The notes under the pieces were generated by a model that did not search any database, had not been told where the DNA came from, and was given only the letters and a program-made list of their open reading frames with translations. A stretch of DNA of 38,803 nt from Nemertoderma westbladi. Its lineage: Eukaryota > Animalia > Xenacoelomorpha. Below, in pieces: positions 1 through 38,803 of the stretch (position 1 is its first letter; each line of letters starts with the position of its first letter). The stretch covers positions 1 through 38,803 of the forward strand of contig JAUCBJ010006877.1 in assembly GCA_032718475.1 (NCBI GenBank), given 5' to 3'. The translations under genes were made by a program, and so were the position numbers.

Positions 1-3000
1 GGAAGGGTTTATGTGGAAGAACACCCGTGGTGGTGAACAGGCATTCCTTTAGGAAACAACGTAGAAGGGATTACTGTGCAAGATCACCCATGGTGGCGAA
101 CAGGCATTCCTTTAGGAAACAAAGTTGAAGGGTTTACTGTGGAAGATCACCCATGGTGGTGAACAGGCATTCCTTTAGGAAACAGAGTGGAAGGGTTTAC
201 TGTGGACGATCACCCATGGTGGTGAACAGGCATTCCTTTAGGAAACAAAGTAGAAGGGTTTACTGTGCAAGATCACCCATGGTGGTGAACAGGCATTCCT
301 TTAGGAACCAGAGTGGAAGGGTTTACTGTGGAAGATCACCCATGGTGGTGAACAGGCATTCCTTTAGGAAACAAAGTTGAAGGGTTTACTGTGGAAGATC
401 ATCCATGGTGGTGAACAGGCATTCCTTTAGGAACCAGAGTGGAAGGGTTTACTGTGGAAGATCACCCATGGTGGTGAACAGGCATTCCTTTAGGAAACAA
501 AGTTGAAGGGTTTACTGTGGAAGATCACCCATGGTGGTGAACAGGCATTCCTTTAAGGGTTTACTGTGCAAGATCACCCATGGTGGTGAACAGGCATTCC
601 TTTAGGAACCAGAGTGGAAGGGTTTACTGGGGAAGATCATCCAAGGTGGTGAACAGGCATTCCTTTAGGAAACAGTGCGGAAGGGTTTACTGTGGAAGAT
701 CACCCGTGGTGGCTAGCAGGCATTCCTTTAGGAAACAGAGTGGAAGGGTTTACTGTGGAAGATCACCCATGGTGGTGAACAGGCATTCCTTTAGGAAACA
801 AAGTAGAAGGGTTTACTGGGGAAGATCATCCAAGGTGGTGAACAGGCATTCCTTTAGGAAACAGTGCGGAAGGGTTTACTGTGGAAGATCACCCGTGGTG
901 GAGAGCAGGCATTCCTTTAGGAAACAGAGTGGAAGGGTTTACTGTGGAAGATCACCCATGGTGGTGAACAGGCATTCCTTTAGGAAACAAAGTATAAGGG
1001 TATACTGGGGAAGATCATCCAAGGTGATGAACAGGCATTCCTTTAGTTAAACATAGTGGAAGGGTTTACTGTGGAAGATCACCCATGGTGGTGAACAGGC
1101 ATTCCTTTAGGAAACAAAGTGGAAGGGTTTACTGTGGAAGATCATCCATGGTGGTGAACAAGCATTCCTTTAGGAAACAGAGTGGAAGGGTTTAATATGG
1201 AAGATCGCCCATGGTGATCTAGTGGATTTCCTTTAGGAAACAGAGTGGAAGGGTTTACTGTGGAAGATCATCCATGGTGGTGAACAGGCATTCCTTTAGG
1301 AAACAAAGTAGAAGGGTTTACTGTGGAAAATCATCCATGGTGGTGAACAGGCATTCCTTTAGGAAACAGAGTGGAAGGGTTTACTGTGGAAGATATACCC
1401 ATGATGGTGGTGAACAGGCATTTCTTTAGGAAACCGAGTGGAAGGGTTTACAGTGGAAGATCACCCATGGTGGTGAACAGGCATTCCTTTAGAAAACAGA
1501 GTGGAAGGGTTTAATGTGGAAGATCACCCATGGTGGTGAACAGGCATTCCTTTAGGAAACAGAGTGGAAGGGTTTACTGTGGAAGATCATCCATGGTGGT
1601 GAACAGGCATTCCTTTAGGAAACACAGTGGGAGGGTTTACTGTGGAAGATCACCCATGGTGGTGAACAAGCATTCCTTTAGGAAACAGAGTGGAAGGGTT
1701 TAATGTGGAAGATCACCCATGGTGGTGAACAGGCATTCCTTTAGGAAACAGAGTGGAAGGGTTTACCGTGGAAGATCACTCATTGTGATCTACTGGCTTT
1801 CCTTTAGGTAACAGAGTGGAAGGGTTTACTGTGGAAGATCGCCCATGGTTATCTACTGGCTTTCCTTTAGGAAACAGAGTGGAAGGGTTTAATGTGGAAG
1901 ATCACCCATGGTGATCTACTGGATTTCCTTTAGGAAACAGAGTGGAAGGGTTTACCGTGGAAGATCACCAATGGTGATCTACTGGCTTTCCTTTAGGTAA
2001 CAGAGTGGAAGGGTATACTGTGGAAGATCACCCATGGTGGTGAACAGGCATTCCTTTAGGAAACAGAGTGGGAGGGTTTCCTGTGGAAGATCACCCATGG
2101 TGGTGAACAAGCATTCCTTTAGGAAACAGAGTGGAAGGGTTTAATGTGGAAGATCACCCATGGTGATCTACTGGATTTCCTTTAGGAAACAGAGTGGAAG
2201 GATTTACCGTGGAAGATCACCCATGGTTATCTACTGGCTTTCCTTTAGGTAACAGAGTGGAAGGGTATACTGTGGAAGATCACCCATGGTGGTGAACAGG
2301 CATTCCTTTAGGAAACAGAGTGGAAGGGTTTACTGTGGAAGATCATCCATGGTGGTGAACAGGCATTCCTTTAGGAAACAGAGTGGGAGGGTTTACTGTG
2401 GAAGATCACCCATGGTGGTGAACAAGCATTCCTTTAGGAAACAGAGTGGAAGGGTTTAATGTGGAAGATCGCCCATGGTGGTGAACAGGCATTCCTTTAG
2501 GAAACAGAGTGGAAGGGTTTACTGTGGAAGATATACCCATGATGGTGGTGAACAGGCATTCCTTTAGGAAACAGAGTGGAAGGGTTTACTGTGGAAGATC
2601 ATCCATGGTGATCTACTGGATTTCCTTTAGGAAACAGAGTGGAAGGGTTTACCGTGGAAGATCACTCATTGTGATCTACTGGCTTTCCTTTGGGAAACAG
2701 AGTGGAAGGGTTTACTGTGGAAGATCGCCCATGGTCTACTGGCATTCCTTTGGGAAACAAAGTGGAAGGGTTAACTGTGGAAGATCACCCTTGGTGATGA
2801 ACAGGCATACCTTTAGGAAACAGAGTGGAAGAGGTTTACTGTGAAAGATCACCCATGGTGATCTACTGGATTTCCTTTAGGAAACAGAGTGGAAGGGTTT
2901 ACCGTGGAAGATCACTCATTGTGATCTACTGGCTTTCCTTTGGGAAACAGAGTGGAAGGGTTTACTGTGGAAGATCGCCCATGGTCTACTGGCATTCCTT

Positions 3001-5555
3001 TGGGAAACAAAGTGGAAGGGTTAACTGTGGAAGATCACCCTTGGTGATGAACAGGCATACCTTTAGGAAACAGAGTGGAAGAGGTTTACTGTGAAAGATC
3101 ACCCATGGTGATCTACTGGATTTCCTTTAGGAAACAGAGTGGAAGAGTTAACTGTGGAAGATCGCCCATGGTGGTGAACAGGCATTCCTTTAGGAAACAG
3201 AGTGGAAGGCTTTACTGTGGAAGATCACCCATGGTGGTGAACAAGCATTCCTTTAGGAAACAGAGTGGAAGGGTTTATGTGGAAGAACACCCATGGTGGT
3301 GAACAAGCATTCCTTTAGGAAACAGAGTGGAAGGGTTTACTGTGGAAGATATACCCATGATGGTGGTGAACAGGCATTTCTTTAGGAAACCGAGTGGAAT
3401 GGTTTACAGTGGAAGATCACCCATGGTGGTGAACAGGCATTCCTTTAGAAAACAGAGTGGAAGGGTTTACTGTGGAAGATCATCCATGGTGGTGAACAGG
3501 CATTCCTTTAGGAAACACAGTGGGAGGGTTTACTGTGGAAGATCACCCATGGTGGTGAACAAGCATTCCTTTAGGAAACAGAGTGGAAGGGTTTAATGTG
3601 GAAGATCACTCATTGTGATCTACTGGCTTTCCTTTAGGTAACAAAGTGGAAGGGTTTACTGTGGAAGATCGCCCATGGTTATCTACTGGCTTTCCTTTAG
3701 GAAACAGAGTGGAAGGGTTTAATGTGGAAGATCACCCATGGTGATCTACTGGATTTCCTTTAGGAAACAGAGTGGAAGGGTTTACCGTGGAAGATCACTC
3801 ATGGTGATCTACTGGCTTTCATTTAGGTAACAGAGTGGAAGGGTATACTGTGGAAGATCACCCATGGTGGTGAACAGGCATTCCTTTAGGAAACAGAGTG
3901 GGAGGGTTTACTGTGGAAGATCACCCATGGTGGTGAACAAGCATTCCTTTAGGAAACAGAGTGGAAGGGTTTAATGTGGAAGATCACCCATGGTGATCTA
4001 CTGGATTTCCTTTAGGAAACAGAGTGGAAGGATTTACCGTGGAAGATCACCCATGGTTATCTACTGGCTTTCCTTTAGGTAACAGAGTGGAAGGGTATAC
4101 TGTGGAAGATCACCCATGGTGGTGAACAGGCATTCCTTTAGGAAACAGAGTGGAAGGGTTTACTGTGGAAGATCATCCATGGTGGTGAACAGGCATTCCT
4201 TTAGGAAACAGAGTGGGAGGGTTTACTGTGGAAGATCACCCATGGTGGTGAACAAGCATTCCTTTAGGAAACAGAGTGGAAGGGTTTAATGTGGAAGATC
4301 ACCCATGGTGATCTACTGGATTTCCTTTAGGAAACAGAGTGGAAGGGTTTACCGTGGAAGATCACTCATTGTGATCTACTGGCTTTCCTTTGGGAAACAG
4401 AGTGGAAGGGTTTACTGTGGAAGATCGCCCATGGTCTACTGGCATTCCTTTGGGAAACAAAGTGGAAGGGTTAATTGTGGAAGATCACCCTTGGTGATGA
4501 ACAGGCATACCTTTAGGAAACAGAGTGGAAGAGGTTTACTGTGAAAGATCACCCATGGTGATCTACTGGATTTCCTTTAGGAAACAGAGTGGAAGAGTTA
4601 ACTGTGGAAGATCGCCCATGGTGGTGAACAGGCATTCCTTTAGGAAACAGAGTGGAAGGCTTTACTGTGGAAGATCACCCATGGTGGTGAACAAGCATTC
4701 CTTTAGGAAACAGAGTGGAAGGGTTTATGTGGAAGAACACCCATGGTGGTGAACAAGCATTCCTTTAGGAAACAGAGTGGAAGGGTTTACCGTGGAAGAT
4801 CACTCATGGTGATCTACTGGCTTTCCTTTAGGTAACAGAGTGGAACGGTTTACCGTGGAAGATCACTCATGGTGATCTACTGGATTTCCTTTAGGAAACA
4901 GAGTGGAAGGGTTTACTGTGGAATATCACTCATCGTGATCTACTGGCTTTCCTTTAGGTAACATAGTGGAAGGGTTTACTGTGGAAGATCGCCCATGGTT
5001 ATCTACTGGCTTTCCTTTAGGAAACAGAGTGGAGGGTTTACTGTGGAAGATCACCCATGGTGATGAACAGGCATTCCTTTAGGAAACAGAGTGGAAGGGT
5101 TTACTGTGGAAGATCAACCATGGTGATCTACTGGCTTTCCTTTAGAAAACAGAGTGGAAGGGTTTACCGTGGAAGATCACTCATGGTGATCTACTGGCTT
5201 TCCTTTAGGTAACAGAGTGGAAGGGTTTACTGTGGAAGATCGCCCATGGTTATCTACTGACATTCCTTTAGGAAACAAAATGGAAGGGTTAACTGTGGAA
5301 GATCATCCATGGTGATGAACAGGCATACCTTTAGGAAACAGAGTGGAAGGGTTAACTGTGGAAGATCACCCATGGTCTACTGGCTTTCCTTTAGGTAACA
5401 GAGTGGAAGGGTTTACTGTGGAAGATCATTCATGGTGATCTACTGGCTTTCCTTTAGGAAACATAGTGGAAGGATTTACTGTGGAAGATCACCCATGGTG
5501 GTGAACAGAGTGGAAGGGTTAACTGTGGAAGATCGCCCATGGTGGTGAACAGGCA
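1..5555. repeat. Satellite/minisatellite array, 63-bp unit (about 88 copies, truncated at window start)
   Basis: Consensus GGAAGGGTTTACTGTGGAAGATCACCCATGGTGGTGAACAGGCATTCCTTTAGGAAACAGAGT repeated head to tail. Variant units of 60, 64 and 67 bp occur. The array ends abruptly at ...GAACAGGCA (5555) before AT-rich DNA. Confidence 0.98.
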
Positions 5556-5941
5556 CACTTGGGCTAATTAAATAATATTACTAATGCGTAGAATTAGATA
5601 AAGTGAAACGATTATTTATAATATTAATTAACTTAATTATTTATAATATAATATGTGTATAGTATTTGATATTATGACTATGATAAATTATTTGTTTTAT
5701 ATGATAAATTTAAAAACATAATGACATTCTAATATATTATATATCACATTAATTCCATATTAAACCGGGTAAATTTATTTTTTTAATACCCATCTGGGAG
5801 ATCGGCTCCTCTCAGTCCAGCCCCATCTCCGAAATCTCACGCCCTCCACGACGGCCTCCGACCACCGCGCAAACAGAGCGAGTTTGAGCGGAGTAACGAT
5901 ATTATTTGATATTATTAATTATCCGATTTGATCAATTGAAT

Positions 5942-6257
5942 ATGGAAGGGAAATCACCAAAAGCGTCCTACAGACTTGACCCGGAATCGCAAGAAAACTT
6001 AATCCCAAAACATTCTTCTGGACAAAAGCTCAAGTTATTCTTGAAAAATAATCTTCTGCTATTCCTCACTATTTTGGCCATTATTGTCGGAATTCTTTTG
6101 GGAGTTTTTCTGAGAGACTACGAATTAACTAAAAGTCAAATCGCTTATATATCATTCCCAGGGGAGATGCTAGTTCGAGCATTAAAGTTGTTAGTGCTCC
6201 CTCTTGTAGCGACGAGTATGATCGCTTCCTGTGCCAGTTTGGACGCCACAACATCAG
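5942..6257 (+). CDS. SLC1A: Excitatory amino acid transporter (SLC1/EAAT family), exon 1 of 9
   Basis: ATG at 5942; MEGKSPK...KNNLLLFLTILAIIVGILLG...ISFPGEMLVRALKLLVLPLV...SLDATTSG (TM1-TM2, FPGE motif); donor G|GTAAGT, phase 1. Confidence 0.93.
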
Positions 6258-6319
6258 GTAAGTTTGTTGGTTTCATATTCACTCATTAGATATATTTATA
6301 TATATGGGCGGGAACTATG

Positions 6320-10322: not shown

Positions 10323-13190
10323 TTATTTTACGTAATTTAAGTTCAACATTTCACGAATACGCGAAACGCCATGTTGGCGACAGATAACAGACACACCCCG
10401 TAGGATGCTATTGTCAATGTTGTCAACCCTGTTGAACAAACTCGTAATCGATTTATAACGTAAGTGAATGAATAAAGGTATATTCAGTAGACCAAATGTC
10501 AGAGAAATACTAGTGGATTCTCCATCAGTTATACGGGGTATTTTAAATAGAAATCTAGCACAATTATTGTATGCTACTCGTAGTTTATTATGTGCACTGT
10601 CAGAATAGCTGCGCTTTGCCCAGAGCGAGTTGCAATATATGGGGGTGCAATAGGCTCGGAATAAAGCAAGCTTAACTGGTCGGCTGCAATTGCCAAACTT
10701 GCGTAGCAACATATTACCACGTGCGTATAAGCTATTAGTCTGCTTACGGATATCAAAATCGTCATCTAACGTACAATGTATTAAATGTCCTAAGTAGTTA
10801 AATTTATCAACAATATCAAGTTTCACATCATAAAGAAATACTGCGGACTTAGCGCTGCAGCTTATATCTCTTGGTAAAAAATACATACATTTAGATTTCT
10901 TCTTATTGAAAGTCATAGAGTTATTAGAGGCGTAACTAACAGCAACATCTATTAACTTTTGTAACCCGTAAATTGAGTTTGACAGCAAACAGATATCATC
11001 AGCATAACCCAAGTGATTTACCCTGATATTACCCATATAACATCCAACCCCGCTTAATGTTAATTGAATGCTTAAATCATCTAAATAAACATTGAAAAAC
11101 AGGGGAGACAGAATGCCACCCTGTTTTGTACCATTAGTCACCGTAAATTTCGGTGAGACTATACCCGCCCAAACAACACACATCAACTGCGACCTATACC
11201 AATAAATAATCAGACGCACAATATATAGGGGAATATTTCGATCAATAAGTTTGCGAAAAAGTACAAAGTGGTTAACTTTGTCAAAAGCTTTGCTGGCGTC
11301 TAGCATACACACATAAACGGGTGTGTTCTTACTTAAATAATAATTGAGAATCTCTTTTAGGGCATATACGCAGGTTTCAGTGCCAAGCTTCGACTTGAAG
11401 CCAAACTGGTTATCGGTAGTGTACAGAAGGGAAAGACACCTATGTAAGATAACATTTTCTAAAATTTTACTGAGCACTGTAGCAATTGAAATACCTCTAT
11501 AATTATCCTTAGACGTGTGGTCATCATTCTTATCCTTAATTAACGGAATTATAATAGATTCCATCATACCAATCGGCATGTAACCGTGGACAAAAATACC
11601 AGTAAAAATAATAGATAGAATATTTAACAAAGAAACACAACAGCCATTTATAAAGTGTTCCGCCAGAAGGCCATCTGGGCCGACGGCCTTGCCACGAGAC
11701 AGATTATTAATCGCCATAAATGTTTCAACAGGAGATACAATATTATCAGCACCAAAAACGGTTTCCTTCAAACGACTGTGTACAAACTCTCGACTGGAGT
11801 CGTCTTTTACACTATTTAGTAGATCATCAAAATGTGATTTCCACATATCGCAGATTTCCCCTGGCCCATTTGCATCACCTACCCTGCTAGGGAGTGGAGC
11901 AAAATCGCACGCTTGTTTATGAACCCCAGACCAAAATTCATTACTGCTAGTGCCTTTAATAAGGGCATTTGCGAGTTTTTCCTCTCGAAATTTTTGTTCA
12001 TTACGTTTACATTCCCGAAGAGAACGTTTAAATTGTGCTTTGCTGCACAGGTATTTCCTATGAATTTCACCATCCCTTGGAGATCCAATAGACCGCCAAG
12101 TTTTAAGCCATTTTCTGGACTCCTCGTATTTATCTTTTACAATATCATTCCAGCCAGGAATGTGGGGGGCAGTGTTACTTTTAGTTTTCCGTGGACTAAT
12201 AGTAGCATTACCACATGTTAGCAAAATATGCACCAGGTTATTATACAATTCATCTATATACTTCTTATGAGTTTCACAGTTTGTATCATTGCACACAATA
12301 AATGACTCATCAATTGGAAAAAATTCTAAAAGTTGACGAGCCTTAATGAGATAGTTATTAATTTGCAAAGGTGTGGCGTGTTCCCAATCCAGAGTATTAC
12401 ACGATTTATGTTGCTGAGCAGGAGTGCCGCCAGCACTTTGTCCATTAACTGTGCCACATATAGACACACTGATAGGAATATGGTCCCTAACACTAATATC
12501 GTAGTTCACATTGATGTTTTTTATCAGCTCAATAGCAGATTGGGAACATACAACATGATCCAACCACGATGTTGACGAATGTGCGTCACTCACGTAAGTA
12601 AACGTATTGGCTGGCAATAACACTGTATCAATGATAGACAGATTTAACTCACTGCACCATTCAGATAGATAATTATAGAATAATCTGCCTGGGTTGGCGT
12701 TAAAATCACCGAAAATCAACAAATGAGAATGAGGTACAGATTCATAAATGGCCTTTAGGCTCCCAAGACAATTACTATAAAGGTCATCATTATCAGGGCA
12801 TTCATATGGCATATAAACATTAAGAATTAATAAAATATCATTATTATTCAACTTAACAGTTATCCCAAAAACCCTATCATTACCTGTTTTAATTATAGCG
12901 GTAGAGTGCGCTATGGATTTTTTCCAAAGTATACCGATACCCCCAAAGGGCCTGCCAACTAATATCTGACTAGATAGATCAACGGGTGACGTACCAAAAG
13001 CATTGTAATTAGGGTGTATATTAGACAAAAATGACAACTCCTGCTTAGGGAGCATTAGTTCTTGCAGTAATAACAAGTCACACCCATTATTACAAGCATC
13101 ATTAATTACATGTAGTGAGTGCAAATTTCTAACAGACCCACAGTTATACGAAACAAAACTTAGGTTGAGGTTAAAGCTTTCATCCGCCAT
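10323..13190 (-). CDS. LINE ORF2: AP-endonuclease plus reverse transcriptase, 955 aa, uninterrupted
   Basis: EN motifs SYNC, LLQE, GGIGI, NVYMP, GDFNA, WLDHV and DH. RT motifs YRGIS, NQFGF, DASKAFD, GTKQGGILSPLFF, YADD and YLG. Confidence 0.96.
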   Translation of the reverse strand: MADESFNLNLSFVSYNCGSVRNLHSLHVINDACNNGCDLLLLQELMLPKQELSFLSNIHPNYNAFGTSPVDLSSQILVGRPFGGIGILWKKSIAHSTAIIKTGNDRVFGITVKLNNNDILLILNVYMPYECPDNDDLYSNCLGSLKAIYESVPHSHLLIFGDFNANPGRLFYNYLSEWCSELNLSIIDTVLLPANTFTYVSDAHSSTSWLDHVVCSQSAIELIKNINVNYDISVRDHIPISVSICGTVNGQSAGGTPAQQHKSCNTLDWEHATPLQINNYLIKARQLLEFFPIDESFIVCNDTNCETHKKYIDELYNNLVHILLTCGNATISPRKTKSNTAPHIPGWNDIVKDKYEESRKWLKTWRSIGSPRDGEIHRKYLCSKAQFKRSLRECKRNEQKFREEKLANALIKGTSSNEFWSGVHKQACDFAPLPSRVGDANGPGEICDMWKSHFDDLLNSVKDDSSREFVHSRLKETVFGADNIVSPVETFMAINNLSRGKAVGPDGLLAEHFINGCCVSLLNILSIIFTGIFVHGYMPIGMMESIIIPLIKDKNDDHTSKDNYRGISIATVLSKILENVILHRCLSLLYTTDNQFGFKSKLGTETCVYALKEILNYYLSKNTPVYVCMLDASKAFDKVNHFVLFRKLIDRNIPLYIVRLIIYWYRSQLMCVVWAGIVSPKFTVTNGTKQGGILSPLFFNVYLDDLSIQLTLSGVGCYMGNIRVNHLGYADDICLLSNSIYGLQKLIDVAVSYASNNSMTFNKKKSKCMYFLPRDISCSAKSAVFLYDVKLDIVDKFNYLGHLIHCTLDDDFDIRKQTNSLYARGNMLLRKFGNCSRPVKLALFRAYCTPIYCNSLWAKRSYSDSAHNKLRVAYNNCARFLFKIPRITDGESTSISLTFGLLNIPLFIHLRYKSITSLFNRVDNIDNSILRGVSVICRQHGVSRIREMLNLNYVK

Positions 13191-13310
13191 TGTTAAGGTT
13201 GGAAAGTTTCAGAATAAGACATTGATTAAAGAAAGAAATATAAACATTTTATAAAAAAAAAATATATATATTTATACATAAAATAATACAAATGATACAA
13301 AAATTATAGT

Positions 13311-14473: not shown

Positions 14474-14606
14474 ATAATTAAATATTATATTATTTTATAT
14501 TTTTGATAGACCACAAAATAATGAATGGATCGATACACTCCGTATCTATACGTTCATTTCTTTTGTGGTCTACAGAGAAATATAAAATAATATAATATTT
14601 AATTAT
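14474..14606. mobile_element. Palindromic MITE-like hairpin
   Basis: Near-perfect inverted arms of about 52 bp: ATAATTAAATATTATATTATTTTATATTT...TAGACCACAAAA..AATGAA and its reverse complement. Confidence 0.75.
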
Positions 14607-18850: not shown

Positions 18851-19942
18851 TTAACCGCCCTAATACTCCCGGGCTATAAAATGTTGTACAAAAAACGGGG
18901 GGGGGGGGGTGTCATATTGACCCCCCCTCCCCCCCCCCCCCCCCCCTCCCCCCTCTAAAATCTACAAATTTTTACGAAAACGTCTGATTTTTTGTTTGTA
19001 CGTAGGTATCACTAGATCTGAATCCGACCGAAAAAAAATTTCGAAAAAATGTACTGGGATGGTGGTTATATTGCAGAACCAAAATTACAAGTAGTGCACA
19101 GTTTTCACAAAATTTGAAAGTTACATTTTTCGGCTAATTGTTTTTCAATACAGGTTTTCTGGGGCGCAAAATACATTGGAAAATATTTAAAAATGATATG
19201 ATTGCTATAAATAGCTGTTTAGTCCTCTCTGCGTAGGAAAAAAATGAAAAAAACAAGTAACTAGCACTTTTCAGTTAGAACACAAAATTTTTGATTCACT
19301 TATACGATGCTATAAATTCACATTTTCAGGATTTCGAGGGCGCTGTTTCTAATGGAATACATTTCTAATATGCCAGATCATTGCTACTTTTATTTTTTGG
19401 CGTAATTTGGAAAATTTTGGTGCAAACACCAAATTTCGTACCCATCACCAAAAAGTACAAGTTTGCGATGTCCATTGCTGTTTTTATTGATTCCATCGGA
19501 TTCAGGACCCTCATAAACTCGTATAACGCAAGAAACAAGATAATACTATTATCTACTGATCAATTTTCTTATTTTCCAAAATTTGGTGCTGGAACAACAA
19601 TTTTCACCCACCGGCGAAAAATACAAGTTTGAAAACTCCTATGAAATTTTTACTGATTCCATTGAATTTAGAACCCTCACAAACCCGAATAACGCAAGAA
19701 ACAAGGTGACACAATCAATTGATATATTTGATGGTTTTCTAAATTTGGTGCTAGCACCACATTTTGCACCCACTTCTGAAAAATACAAGTTTGAGATGTC
19801 TAGTTCTATAATTATATATTTCATTGAATTCAGAACAGCCATAAACCTCTACAATGCAAGAAATAAATTGTCACAAGCAATTTTATCTATTGAATGTAAT
19901 TTTCAAAAAACGTCTCAAAAAATGTGCCAAAAGTAGGGTTAA
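18851..19942. mobile_element. TTAA-flanked (piggyBac-like) non-autonomous element with about 165-bp internal repeats
   Basis: Starts TTAACC and ends AGGGTTAA. It has a subterminal G-tract-TCATATTGA-C-tract, three tandem repeats at about 19411, 19579 and 19741, and inverted partial copies near 19150 and 19330. Confidence 0.55.
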
Positions 19943-26187: not shown

Positions 26188-26825
26188 CTGCATTAATATT
26201 ATGCTCATTAGAACCGCAATGGCCGATTTAGTGGGGGTAGACAACTTCAAAACAAACGCAGAGCGAATAGTTCTTGAGATATCGCAGAAAATGTGAAGTC
26301 CGGCACAAGTCTACACTACCGCCTTGATGCAATATGGAAAAATCCTCAAAAAATTTTATTTTGAATTATCTCAAGGAACCAAGAATAGACACATCACAGA
26401 AGTGATCGATGTAGTGGGTATAGATAGACACCTTTAAAATAAGAGTAGAGTCATTAGTTCTTGAGTTATTTTACAAAATGTCAAGACTATATCCACCAAT
26501 TAATACTTGATATTGAGTTGACCCATTCAACACATTTTGTACAAAAACTATAGTGAATTAATGACTACTCTTTCATTATGAAGGTGTCTGTATACACTAA
26601 ATCAATTTGTTGCAGTGATGTGTCTATTCTTGATTCTTTGAGATAATTCAAAATAAAATTTTTTGAGGATTTTGCCATATTGCATCAAAGCGGTAGTGTA
26701 GACTTGTGCCGGACTTCACAATTTCTGCAATATCTCAAGAACTATTCGCCCTATGTTTGTTTTGAAGTTGGTCTACCCCCACTAAATCGGCCATTGCGGT
26801 TCTAATGAGCATAATATTAATGCAG
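26188..26825. mobile_element. Foldback/MITE with about 295-bp terminal inverted repeats
   Basis: CTGCATTAATATTATGCTCATTAGAACCGCAATGGCCGATTTAGTGGGGGTAGAC... matches the reverse complement of the right end. The arms run to about 26482 and 26533, with a spacer of about 50 bp. Confidence 0.92.
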
Positions 26826-28221
26826 TAGGAGAACTCAAAGTTGGCCATCGCGAAAATTTAGAAATATCATCACTTTGCGCCAAATGGTAGGTTCTGTCCA
26901 TGTGCCTGTGGCACTACTTCCCTTGATCCAAAAATTAAAATTTTTGGTTCTAACTAAGTTTGGACCCAATTGATGACATTTGATGCAAGCAGGAAGTTCT
27001 TTCTTGAGTCATTGATCTTTCATCAATGTGTTATATTGTTATAAATTTCATTATGGTGCATCGTGGCGGCACAAAATTTCAACCCTCTTGGGATCCGTGA
27101 AGATATAGACGAAATTTAATGAAATTTTTTTGCCTTACTTTTTTACCATTTGGCAACTTTTGTGCACCGGTAGAACAATGAAATCGAAAAAAAGTAAAAA
27201 ACGCACCACCCTACAGTACAGTAGGTCATGCAATATTAATCAAGGAATTCATAATTATTATGTAGGCTATACTGTATTAAAACCGAACCACTACAGGCGC
27301 CAACAATAAGCCTTCTGATTTTATATCTAATCCAAGAAATTAAAACCAAAACTAAAGTGGTGGGAATTAAAAAACCACAGGGTAACCATGAATGACAACA
27401 AAACAAAAGTAATTAGTCATGCCCAATCATTTAGTCATAAACATATTACAGTACAAAGTTGAAATTTTTCGCCAATCAGTTCAAGCATATCATTGTTAAA
27501 ATCTATCTTACCATTTCCTCTCTTTATAGCTGCTCGTGATAACAATAATGGAATATCGCAATCTACAATATTAACAAATAAATATAAGCGTTTATTACCA
27601 AGTTGTATTGGTAATATTGCCTTCTTGCTGGACAAATGCCGATTTCCATCACCGAAATGAAACCAAACATTACTCTTTTCCCAGTAAATATCTCTTTGAT
27701 CACTACAACTCAGGGAATCAATGTAACATTCCAACCAAACCTTCCCAGCAACGGTAGTGACACAACCGGTGTCAAGAGCAGCATAATTTAATGTTTCTGA
27801 CAATGACTGATCTTCTGTAACAATATCAACATCCGTATAAAGATTTATATGAACATCTTCCATTTCTGTATATAGCTGTAAATTATCAGCAGCTTGTTTT
27901 TATTGACAATCAGATTCATAATATATCGACAAACAAACTCCACAATGTGTTGGTCGTCCATATTGATCAGATGGATTCAATCGCGATGTAGCGTCGGTCC
28001 CACCCCCCCCCCCCCCCCGGTTGAACTCGAGAGTAATGAGACCGGGTTGATTCATCTGATTGAAATTACCACCTTGTCTTCTAAAACCTCCTCCATAATT
28101 CCGAAATCCTTGGCGTCCAGTTCTTAAATTTCCTCGGTTATGATTAAATCAACGATGTCGAAATCTTCCTCGACTGAAATAACCATAGTAACATTCATTA
28201 TCCTCCACATATCCATCATTG

Positions 28222-28479
28222 TGAATAAGACAATATGATAATCATGATAATCATCAATATGATAACGAACTTGTACTTTCCTTTACTTTCCTTTGAGTGA
28301 GTAGTTGGCCTTAATATGATCTCCCACTCCACAGCGAAATATTCATCCGGTCTGGTAGCTCAGTACACTCACCCGGCTGATGATAACCAGAAGTTTGAAA
28401 CCTAGGTACCGGGTTCGAGCCCCAATAGGGCCGGTTGATATTTTTCGCTATGGAGAGCATTATCATATTGTCTTATTCA
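28222..28479 (+). mobile_element. 258-bp inverted-repeat-bounded element carrying a tRNA-like unit with an embedded hammerhead ribozyme
   Basis: Perfect 21-bp IR TGAATAAGACAATATGATAAT (28222-28242 / 28459-28479). An inner imperfect IR spans about 28327-28350 / 28431-28455. A-box-like TAGCTCAGT, B-box GGTTCGAGCCC, and T5 at 28441. Confidence 0.8.
28371..28414 (+). ncRNA. Minimal type-I hammerhead ribozyme
   Basis: Stem I ACCCGG/CCGGGT; core CTGATGA; stem II (T)AAC-CAGAA-GTT(T); core GAAA; stem III C-CTAG-G with a palindromic loop; cleavage triplet GTA (predicted cut after 28408). Confidence 0.82.
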
Positions 28480-28993
28480 ATTCTAGTGGGTTTGGTTTTA
28501 ATCTTTATCTCGGTTTCTTTAGTACTAGACGTATACCGCCGTCAATTATTTGGTAACTGAGGTCGTTATGGACATTTTACTAATAGAGACAAATGTTGCA
28601 CATATGGAATTATATGCCTCGTTTTAAAATTAATAAAAAACTTATTAATTATATATTATTTTTAAAATCAATGTAGTTTCCAATAATGGAGCTTGAACAA
28701 CTGAATCATATTTTGGCCTCATACAGTTACTCAAAGGAAAGTACAGCGTTATTCCCGTGCTCTGCTCATTATCCCTCTGGTAACTCTGTTGTCTTAAGAC
28801 ATGGTTTTTTAAGGGGATTAGGCTACCTACAAATAGCTATTTATTTCAAAATATAATAAAATGATTTATTTTTTCTCCCTTCAGCAAAGCCATTATATCA
28901 GACCATGGCCCCCAAATGTTTCAGCTGTGATTTTCCATAATATAATTTTTCAATATTTACTTTCATGAAAACTGTTAAAGCTGTCTATTGCAG

Positions 28994-29868
28994 GAAGTGA
29001 CGTCCCGAACAATCACTACTCCTACTCCATTGTCGACGTCCCAAGCACCCACTACTCCTCCAAATGTTTTACCAACTACTCCTACTACAACTACTTTTCC
29101 ATATTACGAAAAAAGATGCCGTGACAAATTCAATAGAGAATGCCCTAACCTTAATAAATACCTATATTATACCTATACCTTAATTCTTTTGGACAAAGGG
29201 TGGTGAGATGCAAGGCCGATAATGTTGCAATACAAATGCAATTGAGAACCGACAATGTCAACTTTAAGCGGAGTTGGGCTGTATACATTAATGGATTTGG
29301 TAGAATTGGTGGAAGTTATTGGCTGGGCTTAAAAAACATACAAAGTCTAACAAATGCTCATAGAGTAATATGGCGCTTAGGTATTAGAATTGATTATAAT
29401 GGATTTTACTATTGCAGCTCATATGAAAGTTTCAAAGTTATTGGATCCGATTCCAAACTTTCTATCTCTGGCTACAGTAAACCCGATTACTACCATGGTG
29501 TAGAAGATGTAGACATTTTAGACAAGTCCCGTCTTTGCATACGAAACTTATGATTCCTTAACGCCTTTGAATGGAATGGGTTTCAGCACAAAAGATCGTG
29601 ATCGTGTTGAATGGACGTCTGGAAGTATGGCGGTGGTGGAAGTTGGTGGTATAAGTACTATTCGGTTAGTAATGTTAATGGCCAGAAATACAGTACGAAA
29701 TTCAAGACATATCTATCAATAGGAATCTTTTGGTCTCAGGGTAACTTATACAGGGCGCAAGGATCGGAAATGTGGCTTGGTTTCAATGGTCGCACAACCG
29801 ATTGGCACAAACGATTCAAATATCCACACATTCCTCATTTTCAAACTGTTATAAGTGACGGTTTATAG
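28994..29868 (+). pseudogene. Fibrinogen-related domain (FReD) exon with Thr/Pro-rich linker, frameshifted
   Basis: NFKRSW..YINGFG...YWLGL..I..LT, DSL...NGMGFSTKDRD, SWWY....SNVNG, GIFW and SEM fall in successive different frames (shifts near 29190, 29530 and 29610). Possible acceptor TTGCAG| at 28993. Confidence 0.78.
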
Positions 29869-30899: not shown

Positions 30900-32021
30900 T
30901 ACGAATACCACCTCAAGCACCCTGCTACGCAGTCGAACGATAAATTCTCCAGTGTGATGTTCGACGGCCTATTCAGAGTGGGAGGTAGACTCACAAACGC
31001 TCCCCTTTCCCGCGACACGATATTTCCCATTATTATCTACGATCCCGCCATACAATGAAAGATAATACTGGATGTACACAATCAGTTGTTGCACGCTGGG
31101 AGGGAACACATACTTAGTGAAGTACGCACTAGGTATTACTTTGTAAAACCCAGGAAAGCCTTAAATAAAGTTCTGCGCAGCTGTTTACCCTGTAAGAATC
31201 TGTATTGCCAACCCATGACTCAGTTAGAAGCACCCTTACCTAAGGAACTCGTTAGCTGCTACGAGCCTCCCTTTACACATACGGGTGTAGACTTATTTGG
31301 GCCGATAGAGGTCAAGAGGGCTCGAACCATGGTTAAAAGATGGTGCGTTATCTTCATCTGCATGACATGCCGCGCAGTACATCTGGACATGGTTAACGAC
31401 ATCCCCATGAATAGCTTTATCCTGTGCTTACATAGACAAATCAGTAGATACGGCACCAGCAATACAATGAAGTCAGATAAAGGGACTAACTTTATAGGGG
31501 CAAACAACGAGATAGCACGCTCTATAGACAAAGCGCCAGAGGCACTCACATGAGCCCACTTTCTGATGAAAAAGAAAGTAGTGTTGTTACCAGTCTCGAC
31601 ACCCGAGTACGGTGACGAGCTATTGCGACAAACCTGGAAGATGACTCAACTGATTCCAAGCCGATTCGCAAACTACTTTGAGCGATTTTATCTTCCCAGC
31701 ATACAACTCAGGAACAAATGGTTTTCCGTGAAAGAAAACGCCAGGGTAGGAGACATGGTATTAGTAGTGGATCCTGATCTCCCGCAGAAATATTGGCAGA
31801 CAGCGTGCATAATAGAAACACACGTCAGCGTGGATAGCCTGGTAAGATCAGTGGATCTAGTAGTTCTGAGGGAAAAGGGCAAGCTAAACTTCGTTCCCCA
31901 GAGACTCAACAGTCCTATAGGCCGCCTCTGCCTGCTTGAAATGGCACGCAAAGAATCTGGCAACTACGGCAAGCAAGAAGTCAAGCCAACAGATTTGAGA
32001 TATTTTTATTGGATTAGTTAA
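30900..32021 (+). mobile_element. BEL/Pao pol 3' remnant (integrase Zn finger, partial DDE core, C-terminal domain)
   Basis: RVGGRL, H...HAG...C..C, PPFTHTGVDLFGP, RAVHLD, SDKGTNF.GA, PEALT*AHFL, YLP.IQ.R.KW, GDMVLV, D.LVRSV and RLCLLE. It has premature stops, and the segment holding the catalytic E is deleted. A possible 3' LTR starts at TGTTG (32078). Confidence 0.9.
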
Positions 32022-34419: not shown

Positions 34420-34998
34420 CAGATAATTGTAGGCTGAGCTGCTGTCTGACTGTTGTTGAGTTTGGAGAGATTACGGCGTGTGTAGAGTTTGTCTGATCAA
34501 GTGCCGTTAGTAAGTTGGGGCAGCCATATGCGGTAAGGTCAATCCCCTCTTAAAGAATAAGTCGTACTACCGTGTTAGAACGCATACTAACTAACAGTTT
34601 CAGAATCTGCATATACTGTAGTTTATCTAGGCTTGATCGTAGTCTGCCAGTGTTTTGGCCTGTGTTTGTTTGTGTGGTCTGTTCAGGTACCGTAATAGTT
34701 ATTACTCAGATATTTTGTAGGCTGGATTGTTGTCTAACTATTCTTAGGCCTGAAGGGATTGCTGCGTGTGTAGAGTTGGTCTGATAAAGTGCCGTTAGTA
34801 AGTTGGGGCAGCCATATGCGGTAAGGTCAATCCCCTCTTAAAGAATAAGTCGTCCTACCGTGTTAGAACGCATACTAACTAACAGTTTCAGAATCTGCAC
34901 ATACTGTAGTTTGTTTAGGCTTGATAGTAGTTTGCCAGCGTTTGGTTTGTATTTTGTTTGAGTATTCTGTACGGGTAGCGTAATATTTATTATTCAGA
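34420..34998. repeat. Tandem duplication with 288-bp period in the presumed BEL/Pao leader
   Basis: GTGCCGTTAGTAAGTTGGGGCAGCCATATGCGG... occurs at 34501 and 34789. The core is nearly identical and the edges are diverged. Confidence 0.9.
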
Positions 34999-36198
34999 GT
35001 TTATGCGATTATTCGCAACATTCATGTCCCCAAGTTTATTCCTACAGTAATTGTGCTTGTTATACATACCGTTATAGTTAAACTAACCCCGGTACTACAT
35101 CAGGGCTGCTCGGCGTAGGTAAAGACTGGAGATTTTGTGCTTCGGTCACTCCAGCAGATGCCGTGGTTCTTTTAACTGTTCAAGTTTATTTAACTACTGA
35201 TTATTTGTTATACCGGTACTTGTACCTAATTTAGGGTTTAGTGTACAGTGCTTTCCGAAGTAATTAGTGTGTAGGCAGTATAATTGTGTTGTAAAGTGGT
35301 TGATAGGCACATTCGTTAGCTCTATTAACTTCTAGGTAGGAACAATCCGTGATACATAATGTAGTACCTATAGCGATACGGTTATAGGTCGTCAGGCGGT
35401 GGTATTTTCCTATCTGGACAACGCAGTATATTTACTACTACTTATTATTTAAATACCGTAGTACCCTGTCCGTTGTAATAACCAGAAATCTAACCCTTTG
35501 TTAGGCTGGTTTGTAGACTTCCTGTAAAATTACCCTAAAAATCTCGTACGTAATATTTTCGTTGTGTTTTAATTAGAGAATTAATCTCACCCATATCGTA
35601 AGTAATTTGTAGTATTAAGTAACTTAGTTAAATTAGAATTATCAGTTTTAGTGTCTCAATAAGTAACACTTCACTGAGAGCGCACAGCTTTTGTGTAGTG
35701 ATTCCCCCAGAAATAATAACATTTATTTCAAATATTGACAAAAACCCTTTAAACGGGTATATATCTATTATAAATCAACTCAAACGATTTATAAATAGTA
35801 GGCCTGCCAGACAATAACTAGGTCTCACTATCAGTTGGACTACTGCTTAAATAACGGTAATAAAGTAAGTTAAAGTAACCAAGTAACCCTAAAATATTCA
35901 GAAATTCAATTATTCTAAAAAAAAAATAATTGACATACCGGTACTTACCATAGGCTTATTATATATATTTATATATATTTGTGCTAAAATTATATACCGG
36001 TACTCTGTGACAAATCTAGTCTGTAATAATACTTATATATATACTATAAGCATACCGGTATTCTAATATATTATATATATATCACGCTACACTGAGTAGC
36101 AGTATCGGTAATTAATTGTTAGGCTAACGGTGATACTGAATTACTAGACTTACTTTGACTGTATTTATAGCCGTAGGCATTCAACTGTGTAAACAAAC

Positions 36199-38802
36199 AT
36201 GTCAGACGCAACCCAATCACTGTCAGATAGTGTCTTAGAAAGTGTTAGAATGAGTATTAGACTTAGACAGCGTATTAAAAGGATCTGTGACCAAGATCAA
36301 AGTATAGAACATCCCAGATCCAAGTCTAAGTCACCTACTATTGAAAGAAAGGCCACCCCTACAGTAGTAGTGTCAGACCCTAGGCTAGTAGAACAGCGTA
36401 GGTCTATCATCGGCACTTGCGCCCAAGTCAAGCGGGATCAAGAAGCAGCTGTCAAACCGCAGCAACATCCTAGCCAAGAACCTAGTTCTCAGCGTCCCGA
36501 TAGCTCCAGTAGTTCGGATACTGCTGAGCGGACACCCGAACGCGGAGCGAAGATGGCGGATACGGTTTATGATGAGCGGCCAACCTATGAAGAATCAGCC
36601 GACGCCACTTCTTCTCAAGTGGAAAGCGAAGTGGAAAGCGAATTAACGGCCGCAGAGAAGCTGCGAACTAGAGACGCCATTGACATATATCTGTCAGACT
36701 ATCAGCGATTCATAGGAGACGAAGAGTTGAGGAGACGACTGTCTGGACTTCGCCCTAATAGTGAAGGAACCAAGCTTGTGTTGGACGCAATCGATGCGGA
36801 AATGTTAGCTGCAGAACAAGCTAAATGTGATGAAAAACTCCGCCTCGTTAGAGTCCAAGAAGAACAAATAAAGAAAAAACAGATAGAGAACCGAAAGGCA
36901 GCAGCAGTAAAGGCGGCAGAAGCAGAAGCAGCAAAGGCGGCGGCAGAAGTAGAAGCAGAAAGAAAGGCAGCGGATGTAGAAGCAAAAGGAAAGGCAGCGG
37001 TAGCAGAAGCAGAACGGAGAGCGTCTGAGGAGACTGCCCAACTGGAGTTGGAAAATCTGCAAGAGACGCAAGACTACGTAAATAAACATCTAACTGCTAG
37101 TCGAATGCAGAGGATGAGACGATCTACTCCAAAACGCCAAGGATACACATCATCGGAGGAAAGCGAAACCACCGATCCTGAAAGCGGAGGAAATAGATCT
37201 CGTCTAAGCAGGCGTAGAAAAACATCTCACCGTCATAAACTGCCTGATTTGCCCCCAGCTGTCAGAAGACAACTAGCTAGCACAGACTTAGGTAGTACAG
37301 AACCTACAGCCCAAAGTATTAAGGTTCAAAGACTCCCTACAATAGTTGATGAGCCTGAGATAATTAGGCCTGTCGTTCCCAAAATCACTTCTGTGTTAGA
37401 GACCCCTGTACTTCCAGAGCTTAACTCTAAATTCCCTTTACATAGTACTACACTGCCTGTACCCGGTGGAGCAGTCCAAGAGAATATCCCTGTCCAGATA
37501 GCAGAGAGAGAAATCAAAAATTTGTCTCCCGTCGTCCCGCGTCAGCCCGCTACTATGTTGGCGACTCCCGCTTCGGCGGTTGAGTGGGTGGAAGAGGGAC
37601 GGCGGGGGATGAATCTCCTGCTAGGACAGATGCAGGAGACTGTCCACCAACTTAAGGGAACAGTGAGGGAAGGTAGAGCAGAGTTGCAAGAAGTGCAGCA
37701 AAGTATCGCGCTAGAACGCGACAAATTAGTCAATATACAAAAGGGCATACCAATACCCCCTGTAACATTGTGTCAACCTGTTAGGTCTGAAGTATTACAT
37801 GCGCAAGGTGTGGAGCCTACACGCATCTATACTGCTAGTGAAGTTGAAACTCCTATAGCAAACCCTATTAAGGGTGATTATAGACCTGTTATTAATGATA
37901 TTCCCTATAGACCTGATAATGATCCGAGAAATTTATATACCGATAATTCGATATTAAATAACACGATGGCCCAAGAAAGCTTCACGCGTCAGATGGCTAG
38001 AACAGAAGCCCGCCAAGCGGTCAAAGTGGGAGAGATCGTCAAATTCAATGGAGATGAGATGAAATGGTTACCTTTCAACGAATATTACAAAGATAGCATA
38101 CAGAACTCTGTACTATCTAATGGAGAGAAACTTAGATTCCTCATCAAGTGCTTGGAAGGACCTCCCAAGTTAATGGCGTTAAAGTTTATTGGACATCCAG
38201 ATGGATTAAGACAAGTTTGGGATACACTAAACATCAGGTATGGTAACAAGGATAACATAGCTAAGTATTTGTATGCAAAATTAGTAGCCCCCCGACACTT
38301 CCTTAGTAGCGGAATTATAGAGTTTTCCGATGAAATTCAAGAGATCTGTAGACAACTGGACTGGTTAGGTAAGTCGCATGAATATCAGAGTTCCATGGTT
38401 ATTGGAGCCGTAGTCTCTACTTTACCAAAGGGTGGAGTATGTACACGCTGGGACAAGAAAGTGTTGTACATGAATGAACAACAACGACGAAGTCCTACCA
38501 TGGCTGATCTCATGTCTTTCTTAGATAGTGAAGTAAAATTACAACTCATAAGGCAGTCCAGAGAGAAAACATCGGAAAATAAGGTAAGTGAGAAACCCGT
38601 TTCTAGGAGAAGGATAATACCAGTGTGTTATACTGACGACGGCGAAAGCCAAGCTTCTCAAGAAGAGGACAGCGGGAAAGACACAGCAAAATCTTACTAT
38701 GACAACAAGACCTATAAAGACGTAAGTAAATACAAGTCTCGAACCAGTGACAGGAGAGAACAGGTAACAACAACTCCTCCTACGTCTCCTAAGAGAATTC
38801 AC
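36199..38802 (+). CDS. BEL/Pao LTR retrotransposon gag(-pol) ORF, partial (at least 868 aa, runs off the window)
   Basis: ATG at 36199 and no stop to the window end (read codon by codon). From 38041 the BEL gag core reads KFNGDEMKWLPF...LSNGEKLRFL...LEG...WDTL..RYG...LP......W...PTMADLMSFL. Absent from the ORF track. Confidence 0.88.
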   Translation, partial: MSDATQSLSDSVLESVRMSIRLRQRIKRICDQDQSIEHPRSKSKSPTIERKATPTVVVSDPRLVEQRRSIIGTCAQVKRDQEAAVKPQQHPSQEPSSQRPDSSSSSDTAERTPERGAKMADTVYDERPTYEESADATSSQVESEVESELTAAEKLRTRDAIDIYLSDYQRFIGDEELRRRLSGLRPNSEGTKLVLDAIDAEMLAAEQAKCDEKLRLVRVQEEQIKKKQIENRKAAAVKAAEAEAAKAAAEVEAERKAADVEAKGKAAVAEAERRASEETAQLELENLQETQDYVNKHLTASRMQRMRRSTPKRQGYTSSEESETTDPESGGNRSRLSRRRKTSHRHKLPDLPPAVRRQLASTDLGSTEPTAQSIKVQRLPTIVDEPEIIRPVVPKITSVLETPVLPELNSKFPLHSTTLPVPGGAVQENIPVQIAEREIKNLSPVVPRQPATMLATPASAVEWVEEGRRGMNLLLGQMQETVHQLKGTVREGRAELQEVQQSIALERDKLVNIQKGIPIPPVTLCQPVRSEVLHAQGVEPTRIYTASEVETPIANPIKGDYRPVINDIPYRPDNDPRNLYTDNSILNNTMAQESFTRQMARTEARQAVKVGEIVKFNGDEMKWLPFNEYYKDSIQNSVLSNGEKLRFLIKCLEGPPKLMALKFIGHPDGLRQVWDTLNIRYGNKDNIAKYLYAKLVAPRHFLSSGIIEFSDEIQEICRQLDWLGKSHEYQSSMVIGAVVSTLPKGGVCTRWDKKVLYMNEQQRRSPTMADLMSFLDSEVKLQLIRQSREKTSENKVSEKPVSRRRIIPVCYTDDGESQASQEEDSGKDTAKSYYDNKTYKDVSKYKSRTSDRREQVTTTPPTSPKRIH

Positions 38803-38803
38803 G

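Follow-up and report, generated by a model that had tools for sequence, protein, structure and literature searches.

Repeats that carry a hammerhead ribozyme have already been published as non-autonomous derivatives of Penelope-like elements (PLEs) (PMC7229834; bioRxiv 10.64898/2026.07.22.740005, as far as the available text of each goes). For the PLEs themselves, the accessible parts of the literature describe a 5'-truncated copy that lies inverted at the 5' end and so yields flanking inverted repeats (PMC8557442), insertions without a target-site duplication (TSD) and with microhomology junctions (PMC3846280), and the extension of both target strands from the same RNA start sites, 85–92 nt past the hammerhead cut (PMC11167929). 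In the SINE-like Sm-alpha and Sj-alpha repeats of schistosomes, according to the accessible part of PMC6765202, Pol III-type promoter motifs and a hammerhead are united in one short repeat, and the promoter lies away from the 5' end of the propagated RNA.

The window, by which we mean the whole stretch of 38,803 nucleotides of Nemertoderma westbladi DNA that was analysed, carries an insertion that compares with each of these systems. With moderate confidence, it is explained as a 5'-truncated copy of an abundant hammerhead-in-tRNA repeat, inserted into a decayed Copia gag by Penelope-like enzymes acting in trans. With the animal non-LTR retrozymes, as presented in the available text of PMC7229834, it shares a short, non-coding, low-GC and abundant unit, a type I hammerhead of canonical shape and a self-paired predicted RNA, and those repeats are likewise proposed to be non-autonomous PLE derivatives; it differs from them, as far as described there, in that the copy described here is monomeric, has one end inverted and carries its hammerhead fused into tRNA-derived sequence. 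With the EN+ PLEs and their pLTRs, as covered in the accessible sections, it shares the inverted 5'-truncated copy with flanking inverted repeats, the optional TSD and the microhomology junction (PMC8557442, PMC3846280) as well as a hammerhead situated 70–90 nt from the 3' end (PMC4209133, PMC11167929), whereas here the body is tRNA-derived and lacks an RT-GIY-YIG ORF. The order of parts distinguishes it from Sm-alpha and Sj-alpha, in which the promoter is followed by the hammerhead (PMC6765202, accessible part), while the present hammerhead is placed between A box and B box and has bases in common with the T arm. The features of the locus, in coordinates of the window, are as follows.

27435 to 28222, minus strand: host left of the insertion, a decayed Copia gag C-terminus and protease (HMMER, domain scan, tblastn)
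28222 to 28242, minus strand: left arm, an inverted copy of the family 3' end, of which the first base is possibly the host's (relatives keep 28222)
28243 to 28265, minus strand: stuttered re-copies of the inverted 3' end, 28255–28265 being the exact reverse complement of 28460–28470
28262 to 28312, plus strand: beginning of the forward family copy (contig 11 of run X2 aligns from 28262, with 10 gap letters)
28313 to 28350, plus strand: inner left arm, which pairs with 28431–28469 and prolongs the tRNA acceptor stem; a family-level feature
28349 to 28364, plus strand: tRNA-derived 5' part in tRNA register, with the acceptor strand at 28349–28355 and an A-box-like start of the D arm at 28356–28364
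28371 to 28414, plus strand: type I hammerhead (Rfam HH9 at 19.7 bits; descriptor; palindrome and cofold)
28404 to 28433, plus strand: tRNA-derived 3' part shared with the hammerhead, comprising variable loop, 5' strand of the T-stem, B box (28412–28422) and acceptor (28426–28432)
28431 to 28479, plus strand: 3' trailer and family 3' end (loose ends behind 28467–28479 in all four runs)
28441 to 28445, plus strand: run of five T resembling a Pol III terminator, located 8 nt past the tRNA and 32 nt ahead of the 3' end
28480 to 28486, plus strand: seven extra bases without counterpart in uninterrupted host relatives (joint of 28222 to 28487)
28487 to 28531, minus strand: host right of the insertion, the final ~44 bases belonging to the Copia fragment (the joint's short side in X1, X2 and X3)
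28705 to 28765, minus strand: second, inverted piece of the family 5' part (78.6% over 42 columns), without tRNA or hammerhead

Four DNA runs (X1–X4) of one organism, from three studies and each containing part of the stretch, provided the other copies of the family. The contigs aligned on 1.3 kb at 80% likeness numbered 710, 1302, 899 and 82 in the four runs; hundreds of contigs from three studies bear out the claim in the preliminary description that the element is multi-copy, and the family is a very abundant short repeat. Run X1 matched both flanks without any difference and may be the source sample, and is for this reason not regarded as independent. Summed contig depth at 28404–28447 exceeded that of a unique flank about 7,000-fold in X1 and 14,000-fold in X2 and dropped toward the 5' side, to near zero at 28228–28271, values that are to be read with the limits that contig depth cannot rank parts, that holes in it prove nothing and that the drop at 28365 coincides with a subfamily indel. 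Contig depth, being unfit for such uses, was rejected as copy number and as proof of 5' truncation or of a unique left arm. Scanning for the family gave 0 matches in viral contigs and 0 in prokaryote genomes, and 15 matches in metagenome contigs were rejected as chance, none of them having 5/5 stem I pairs, a blastn match or a tRNA.

The host sequence was characterized through its relatives. The protease frame (27438–27899) has 1704 relatives at E 0.001 or better in a full HMMER search; of ten long relatives scanned, out of 150 matches listed, nine carry an integrase before RVT_2, and the tenth (610 aa) gave a weak Copia gag match. The tblastn matches extend above 27905, as far as 28220, from 50 of the 68 relatives of at least 400 aa. 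The order gag-protease-integrase-RVT_2 is kept in the relatives, and the fragment in the window holds the gag end and the protease. As judged from the domain order of the relatives and the reach of tblastn to 28220, the host is a decayed Ty1/Copia gag-protease fragment, in line with the decayed Copia gag that had been claimed. The host fragments gave no match in Pfam, the host protease none in word-based protein searches, and an Atlas search of the fragments returned unnamed clusters with weak leads only. On the right side, tblastn with host relatives gave no minus-strand protein match at 28487–28531.

An empty site was identified in uninterrupted host relatives, which connect 28222 to 28487, the shorter side of the joint being 44 letters long (X1, X2 and X3; two studies); the letters between the two joint ends are marked as not known by the alignment. 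The number of bases missing from these relatives is 264 (28223–28486). A clean insertion of exactly 28222–28479, or 258 bp, had been proposed on the basis of a rejoined reading frame: the insertion and the empty site stand, and the exact boundaries do not; the frame cannot place the boundary, since 258 and 264 are both multiples of 3. Comparison of the flanks found no copy of the left flank in the seven additional bases, which may be filler, a decayed TSD or an indel of the host lineage.

The inverted repeats described beforehand are all present at this locus. The terminal arms, 28222–28242 and 28459–28479, are complementary at 21/21 positions, while the longest perfect inverted repeat arising by chance was 11–16 nt for arms at most 400 nt apart (40 dinucleotide shuffles of the 33-kb non-satellite window). 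The inner repeat is real and longer than first given, with 77% complementarity of 28313–28350 and 28431–28469 over 39 columns, and the threefold recurrence of AATATGAT was seen at start positions 28232, 28256 and 28313. The entire element is predicted to fold at -79.7 kcal/mol (z -5.4). The reported lack of a TSD also stood: over 81 shifts of the boundary the flanks gave 2 matches of 3 nt, where random pairs of flanks give 1.6 on average, and the best longer candidates at the boundaries reached 5/8 and 6/9 matches. The three letters ATT, found on both flanks, resemble the PAc cut motif and were rejected as a candidate, being at chance level. Behind the left arm and the stutter, the forward copy overlaps the inverted sequence by 4 nt (28262–28265) and contains near its start a 10-nt tandem duplication (28274–28293). 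The left arm rests on the assembly of the window, 28228–28261 being covered by no listed contig; X2 contig 11 carries 24 non-fitting letters ahead of 28262, and X4 contig 25 covers 28316–28414 with 5 differences. Two other self-complementary segments occur in the window, a 640-bp foldback at 26188–26825 (85% self-complementary), whose left end has AT-rich stutters and whose sequence bears no relation to the element, and an AT-rich palindrome of 133 bp at 14474–14606 (83% self-complementary).

The two ends of the family behave differently among the other copies. At the 3' side, loose ends behind 28467–28479 were found in 16, 34, 7 and 26 contigs of X1, 36, 31 and 4 of X2, and 28, 32 and 2 of X3 (counts drawn from 24 of 450 rows), and beyond the main end positions the contigs enter mixed flanks (agreement about 0.5). 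The family thus has a near-fixed 3' end at about 28477. The loose-end cluster at 28471 opens with an identical five letters in X1–X3, a variant of the last six bases, and is on this account read as a subfamily with the same end. A target preference, suggested by the AT-rich consensus of the 3' flanks, was rejected, as a majority vote in an AT-rich genome is expected to look so. At the 5' side, other copies enter family sequence that is unlike the left arm of the window. The proposal that the unit is packaged as a foldback element is accordingly not upheld: the 21-bp inverted repeat belongs to this insertion event, and other copies run 5' into other family sequence.

Part of this 5' sequence is present in the window as the inverted fragment at 28705–28765, so that the window contains one full copy of the family and one inverted fragment. 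The fragment is taken as the family's own 5' part because X1 contig 7 holds 28729–28765 on the opposite strand together with 28340–28471; 14 and 11 contigs go on behind 28765 with common sequence. The region 28705–28801, located 225 nt from the insertion, is a copy without the 3' end, which is odd for a 3'-primed insertion, and may be a deletion remnant; one X2 contig shares 28766–28801 and connects it to 28370.

Five joints link the inverted family 5' part to a forward piece starting from 28370, 28379, 28391, 28413 or 28440. Provided that the pieces reach the 3' end, these imply inverted arms of ~108, ~99, ~87, ~65 and ~38 nt, as against 21 nt here. Among the five, the label 'goes back' stands on the 28413 joint (X2, X3), and the other four were taken as same-strand from the order of their coordinates, higher to lower; joints at 80% likeness often stem from other repeats, and the five are among 15 of 26 joints listed. 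An inverted, 5'-truncated copy of variable length beside the 5' end is thus present at this locus and at five joints, four of them read from coordinates. Variable length of the left inverted repeat had been set beforehand as the test that would favor a Penelope mechanism, and the result falls on that side.

It also bears on the idea that a tRNA-hammerhead unit was captured by a DNA transposon of MITE or foldback type whose 21-bp terminal inverted repeats are fixed, an idea that we regard as highly improbable. DNA transposons with terminal inverted repeats leave a TSD of fixed length. The perfect 21-bp repeat at both ends of the insertion and the fixed right end agree with this idea, and it is contradicted by the lack of a TSD, by the stutter copies of the same 3' end that follow the left arm, and by the other copies, which run 5' into family sequence without terminal inverted repeats and vary in arm length. 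Least probable of all the readings weighed is a non-autonomous Helitron-like, rolling-circle element. Helitrons make no TSD and possibly have one fixed and one variable end; their marks are an A|TC start, a CTRR|T end and a subterminal hairpin. Compared with the empty site, the extra segment does end with CTAG before T (28483–28487) and lies between two T, but most other copies end at ~28477, ahead of the CTAG, the left end has no A|TC start, and hammerheads and head-to-head arms are PLE features in the accessible sections of PMC4209133 and PMC8557442.

Insertion by Penelope-like enzymes, the preferred explanation, would proceed as follows. A Penelope-like element would supply its reverse transcriptase and GIY-YIG endonuclease in trans, and reverse transcription would be primed by both cut ends of the target at one 3' site of the RNA. 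From one end a long cDNA of about 215 nt would be made, reaching 28262, and from the other a short cDNA of about 20 nt, with slippage and re-priming; the short cDNA would then anneal to the long one across 4 nt. The terminal inverted repeat would be a by-product, its length varying between copies. The 3' end of the copy lies ~70 nt past the predicted hammerhead cut. Mobilization by a Penelope-like element had been suggested at the outset, and the part of this suggestion that concerns the ends stood, as they look Penelope-type and not DDE-type; a partner ORF was not found, neither a Penelope RT nor a GIY-YIG domain being present among the ORFs of the window that were scanned. Within the insertion of 258–264 bp itself there is no ORF with telomerase-like RT and GIY-YIG, as an autonomous EN+ PLE would have.

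The hammerhead is of type I and lies near the 3' end of the repeat. Stem I is perfect with 6 bp (28371–28376 with 28409–28414), the core at 28377–28383 is intact, stem II consists of three pairs and has U.U at its base, stem III is an 8-nt perfect palindrome (28400–28407), and the cut is predicted after 28408. The Rfam score of 19.7 bits, obtained in a search at relaxed E-value, is below the HH9 gathering score of 52, and at gathering score Rfam gave no match in the window. The hammerhead descriptor found one site, and 2 of 200 shuffles contained one. The unit is non-coding and measures at least 216 nt in this copy and more in others, and a canonical-shaped type I hammerhead in a non-coding unit of 150–450 bp is what is found here. 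The axolotl HHR_Amex2 likewise has a 2-bp stem III closed by a tetraloop and a U.U pair at the base of stem II, and its monomer cleaves 22% in an hour and its dimer much better (PMC7229834, available text). A dimer of the present hammerhead, cofolded through the palindrome, is predicted at -33.4 kcal/mol versus -9.0 per single copy. Two predictions speak against hammerhead activity, in that the motif is missing from the minimum-energy fold and enforcing stem I costs about 4 kcal/mol; under the preferred explanation the hammerhead would cleave as a dimer only.

The hammerhead and tRNA motifs announced in the preliminary description are both present, though both below curated thresholds. ARAGORN called no tRNA in the window, and the Rfam search at relaxed E-value returned the weak HH9 and chance matches, with no tRNA model. 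The register of the tRNA-derived sequence was set by reference to 124 ARAGORN tRNA genes from viral contigs. In this register the acceptor strands 28349–28355 and 28426–28432 form 6/7 pairs, for which the random chance is about 0.013, a pairing that is not independent of the inner inverted repeat, which prolongs the same stem. The A-box-like and B-box motifs were observed once, against 3 of 300 shuffles. All 123 loci in viral contigs that have the element's two motifs are ARAGORN tRNA genes; as the motifs were derived from the element itself, this shows only that they are typical of tRNA. The A-to-B box spacing is 56 in the element and 44–45 in 109/123 tRNAs. This copy has only the first half of the D arm, and many contig alignments break at 28365; the consensus of the X1 loose ends continues past the A box with nine extra letters (17 contigs, agreement 0.48), and a length of nine letters after the A box was found in 67/106 distinct tRNAs.

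By this register the hammerhead is in the place of the tRNA anticodon arm. The cleavage triplet (28406–28408) falls on the variable loop of the tRNA, where the element has GTA and 109/124 tRNAs have GTC, and the 5' strand of the T-stem doubles as the 3' strand of stem I. Stem I is perfect and the T-stem is left with 3/5 pairs, and the ribozyme pairing would have been retained at the expense of the T-stem. The 3' half of the ribozyme would be the tRNA's own sequence, joined to the 5' half of a hammerhead.

Whether such a unit behaves as a SINE depends on its promoter and its ends. Runs of T act as Pol III terminators, and tRNA-derived SINEs have an A-rich or simple-repeat 3' tail and a TSD. The T5 run behind the tRNA is the sole run of four or more T on the plus strand of the element, and no A-rich or simple-repeat tail and no TSD were found at this copy. 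The tRNA-derived A and B boxes of a SINE2 are present, the D arm being incomplete in this copy. In SINEs the distance between promoter and 5' end is 10–15 nt (PMC8969392), while the family sequence ahead of the tRNA measures at least 87 nt here. The position of the tRNA away from the 5' end and the T5 run after it argue that the element is not a plain SINE, and the SINE label originally attached to it is weak. For the same two reasons, at least 87 nt of upstream sequence and a predicted stop 32 nt early, a transcript started at the tRNA could not template this copy. We infer that the template starts upstream, in a tandem copy, at a pLTR promoter or in flanking DNA; in the mechanism above it would be a long read-through or tandem transcript, and not a Pol III transcript from the tRNA.

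A reading that we consider very unlikely is that of an ordinary Pol III tRNA SINE which carries a hammerhead and is mobilized by a LINE, in the manner of Sm-alpha, its inverted end being a repair accident. Such a SINE would account for the box motifs, it would find LINE-type RT genes in the window, one with a 961-aa open frame, and Sm-alpha does unite a Pol III promoter with a hammerhead (PMC6765202, accessible part). It leaves unexplained the copied sequence 5' of the tRNA, the early T5 run and the missing tail and TSD, and inverted 3' arms recur among other copies.

The main alternative, which we consider rather unlikely, is that the unit represents the pLTR of an autonomous Penelope-like element of which solo and inverted copies remain, with a tRNA remnant in the pLTR and the same mechanism of insertion. 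Most PLE hammerheads are solo motifs from truncated copies, as stated in the available part of PMC4209133. In PAc, as far as the source describes it, the ORF begins at the hammerhead; here an ATG in the core opens a frame of 33 codons to the element end, giving a 48-aa peptide, but 281 of 2000 shuffles also yield an open frame of 33 codons, and Pfam gave no match for the peptide. Beyond 28479 continue 2–4 contigs per run, and the first 7 letters are the same in X2 (4 contigs) and X4 (3 contigs), which could be a tail. PLEs form partial tandems and may have a tail of 30–40 bp in the accessible descriptions. No head-to-tail tandem joint was found among the 15 of 26 joints listed; the locus is a monomer of the unit, and the contigs are too short to reveal arrays. 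The 6-bp stem I and short stem II are nearer to a retrozyme than to the minimal motifs of PLEs, which have a stem II of 7–8 bp in the source as available.

A more far-reaching interpretation is put forward tentatively and is itself doubtful. It takes the unit as a functional hammerhead built on a tRNA gene and dependent on Penelope, which would cut between its own A and B boxes and whose RNA would switch between tRNA-like and ribozyme folds. If this is true, two parts of the ribozyme came from the variable loop, namely the cleavage triplet and one of the two stem III strands, and a strand of stem I came from the T-stem; a copy whose Pol III promoter is complete would then be seeded by uncut or tandem RNA only. 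A similar dependence on tandem copies is described for Sm-alpha in the accessible part of PMC6765202.

The remainder of the window contains other repeats and gene pieces. A tandem satellite with a 63-bp unit in about 87 copies, strongly G-skewed, occupies 1–5508. An apparently intact LINE-type ORF of 961 aa with endonuclease and RVT_1 domains is open at 10323–13208 on the minus strand. A remnant with Integrase_H2C2 and DUF5641 (31059–32021) and an 870-aa open frame with DUF1759 that runs off the window (36193–38803) are, judged from their domains, presumably of BEL/Pao type. At 34420–34998 and 19412–19882 there are tandem duplications, about 288 bp and 166 bp long, respectively, and the hammerhead descriptor gave no match in either. 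Exon-like pieces of a sodium:dicarboxylate symporter and of a fibrinogen C domain are located at 5897–6289 and 29158–29553, respectively; together with the LINE and BEL-type remnants, they are indicative of an animal genome.

Penelope-type ends, hammerhead-bearing non-autonomous repeats and repeats with Pol III motifs plus a hammerhead are each known singly. The literature searched, which excludes most subscription papers, Repbase and the primary Sm-alpha papers, yielded no hammerhead that sits inside a tRNA body and has the variable loop and T-stem in common with it; the supplementary alignments of PMC4209133 and of the preprint could hold a similar motif. The word tRNA occurs nowhere in the available text of bioRxiv 10.64898/2026.07.22.740005, and in that of PMC7229834 only for tRNA ligase and tRNA processing. 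The hammerhead inside tRNA-derived sequence is thus likely a new variant among ribozyme-bearing jumping elements. For annotation, the locus is a warning that single copies of the family pass for MITEs. If the ribozyme is active, the family would show a tRNA gene donating half a hammerhead, and would offer thousands of natural insertions for studying two-ended Penelope priming.
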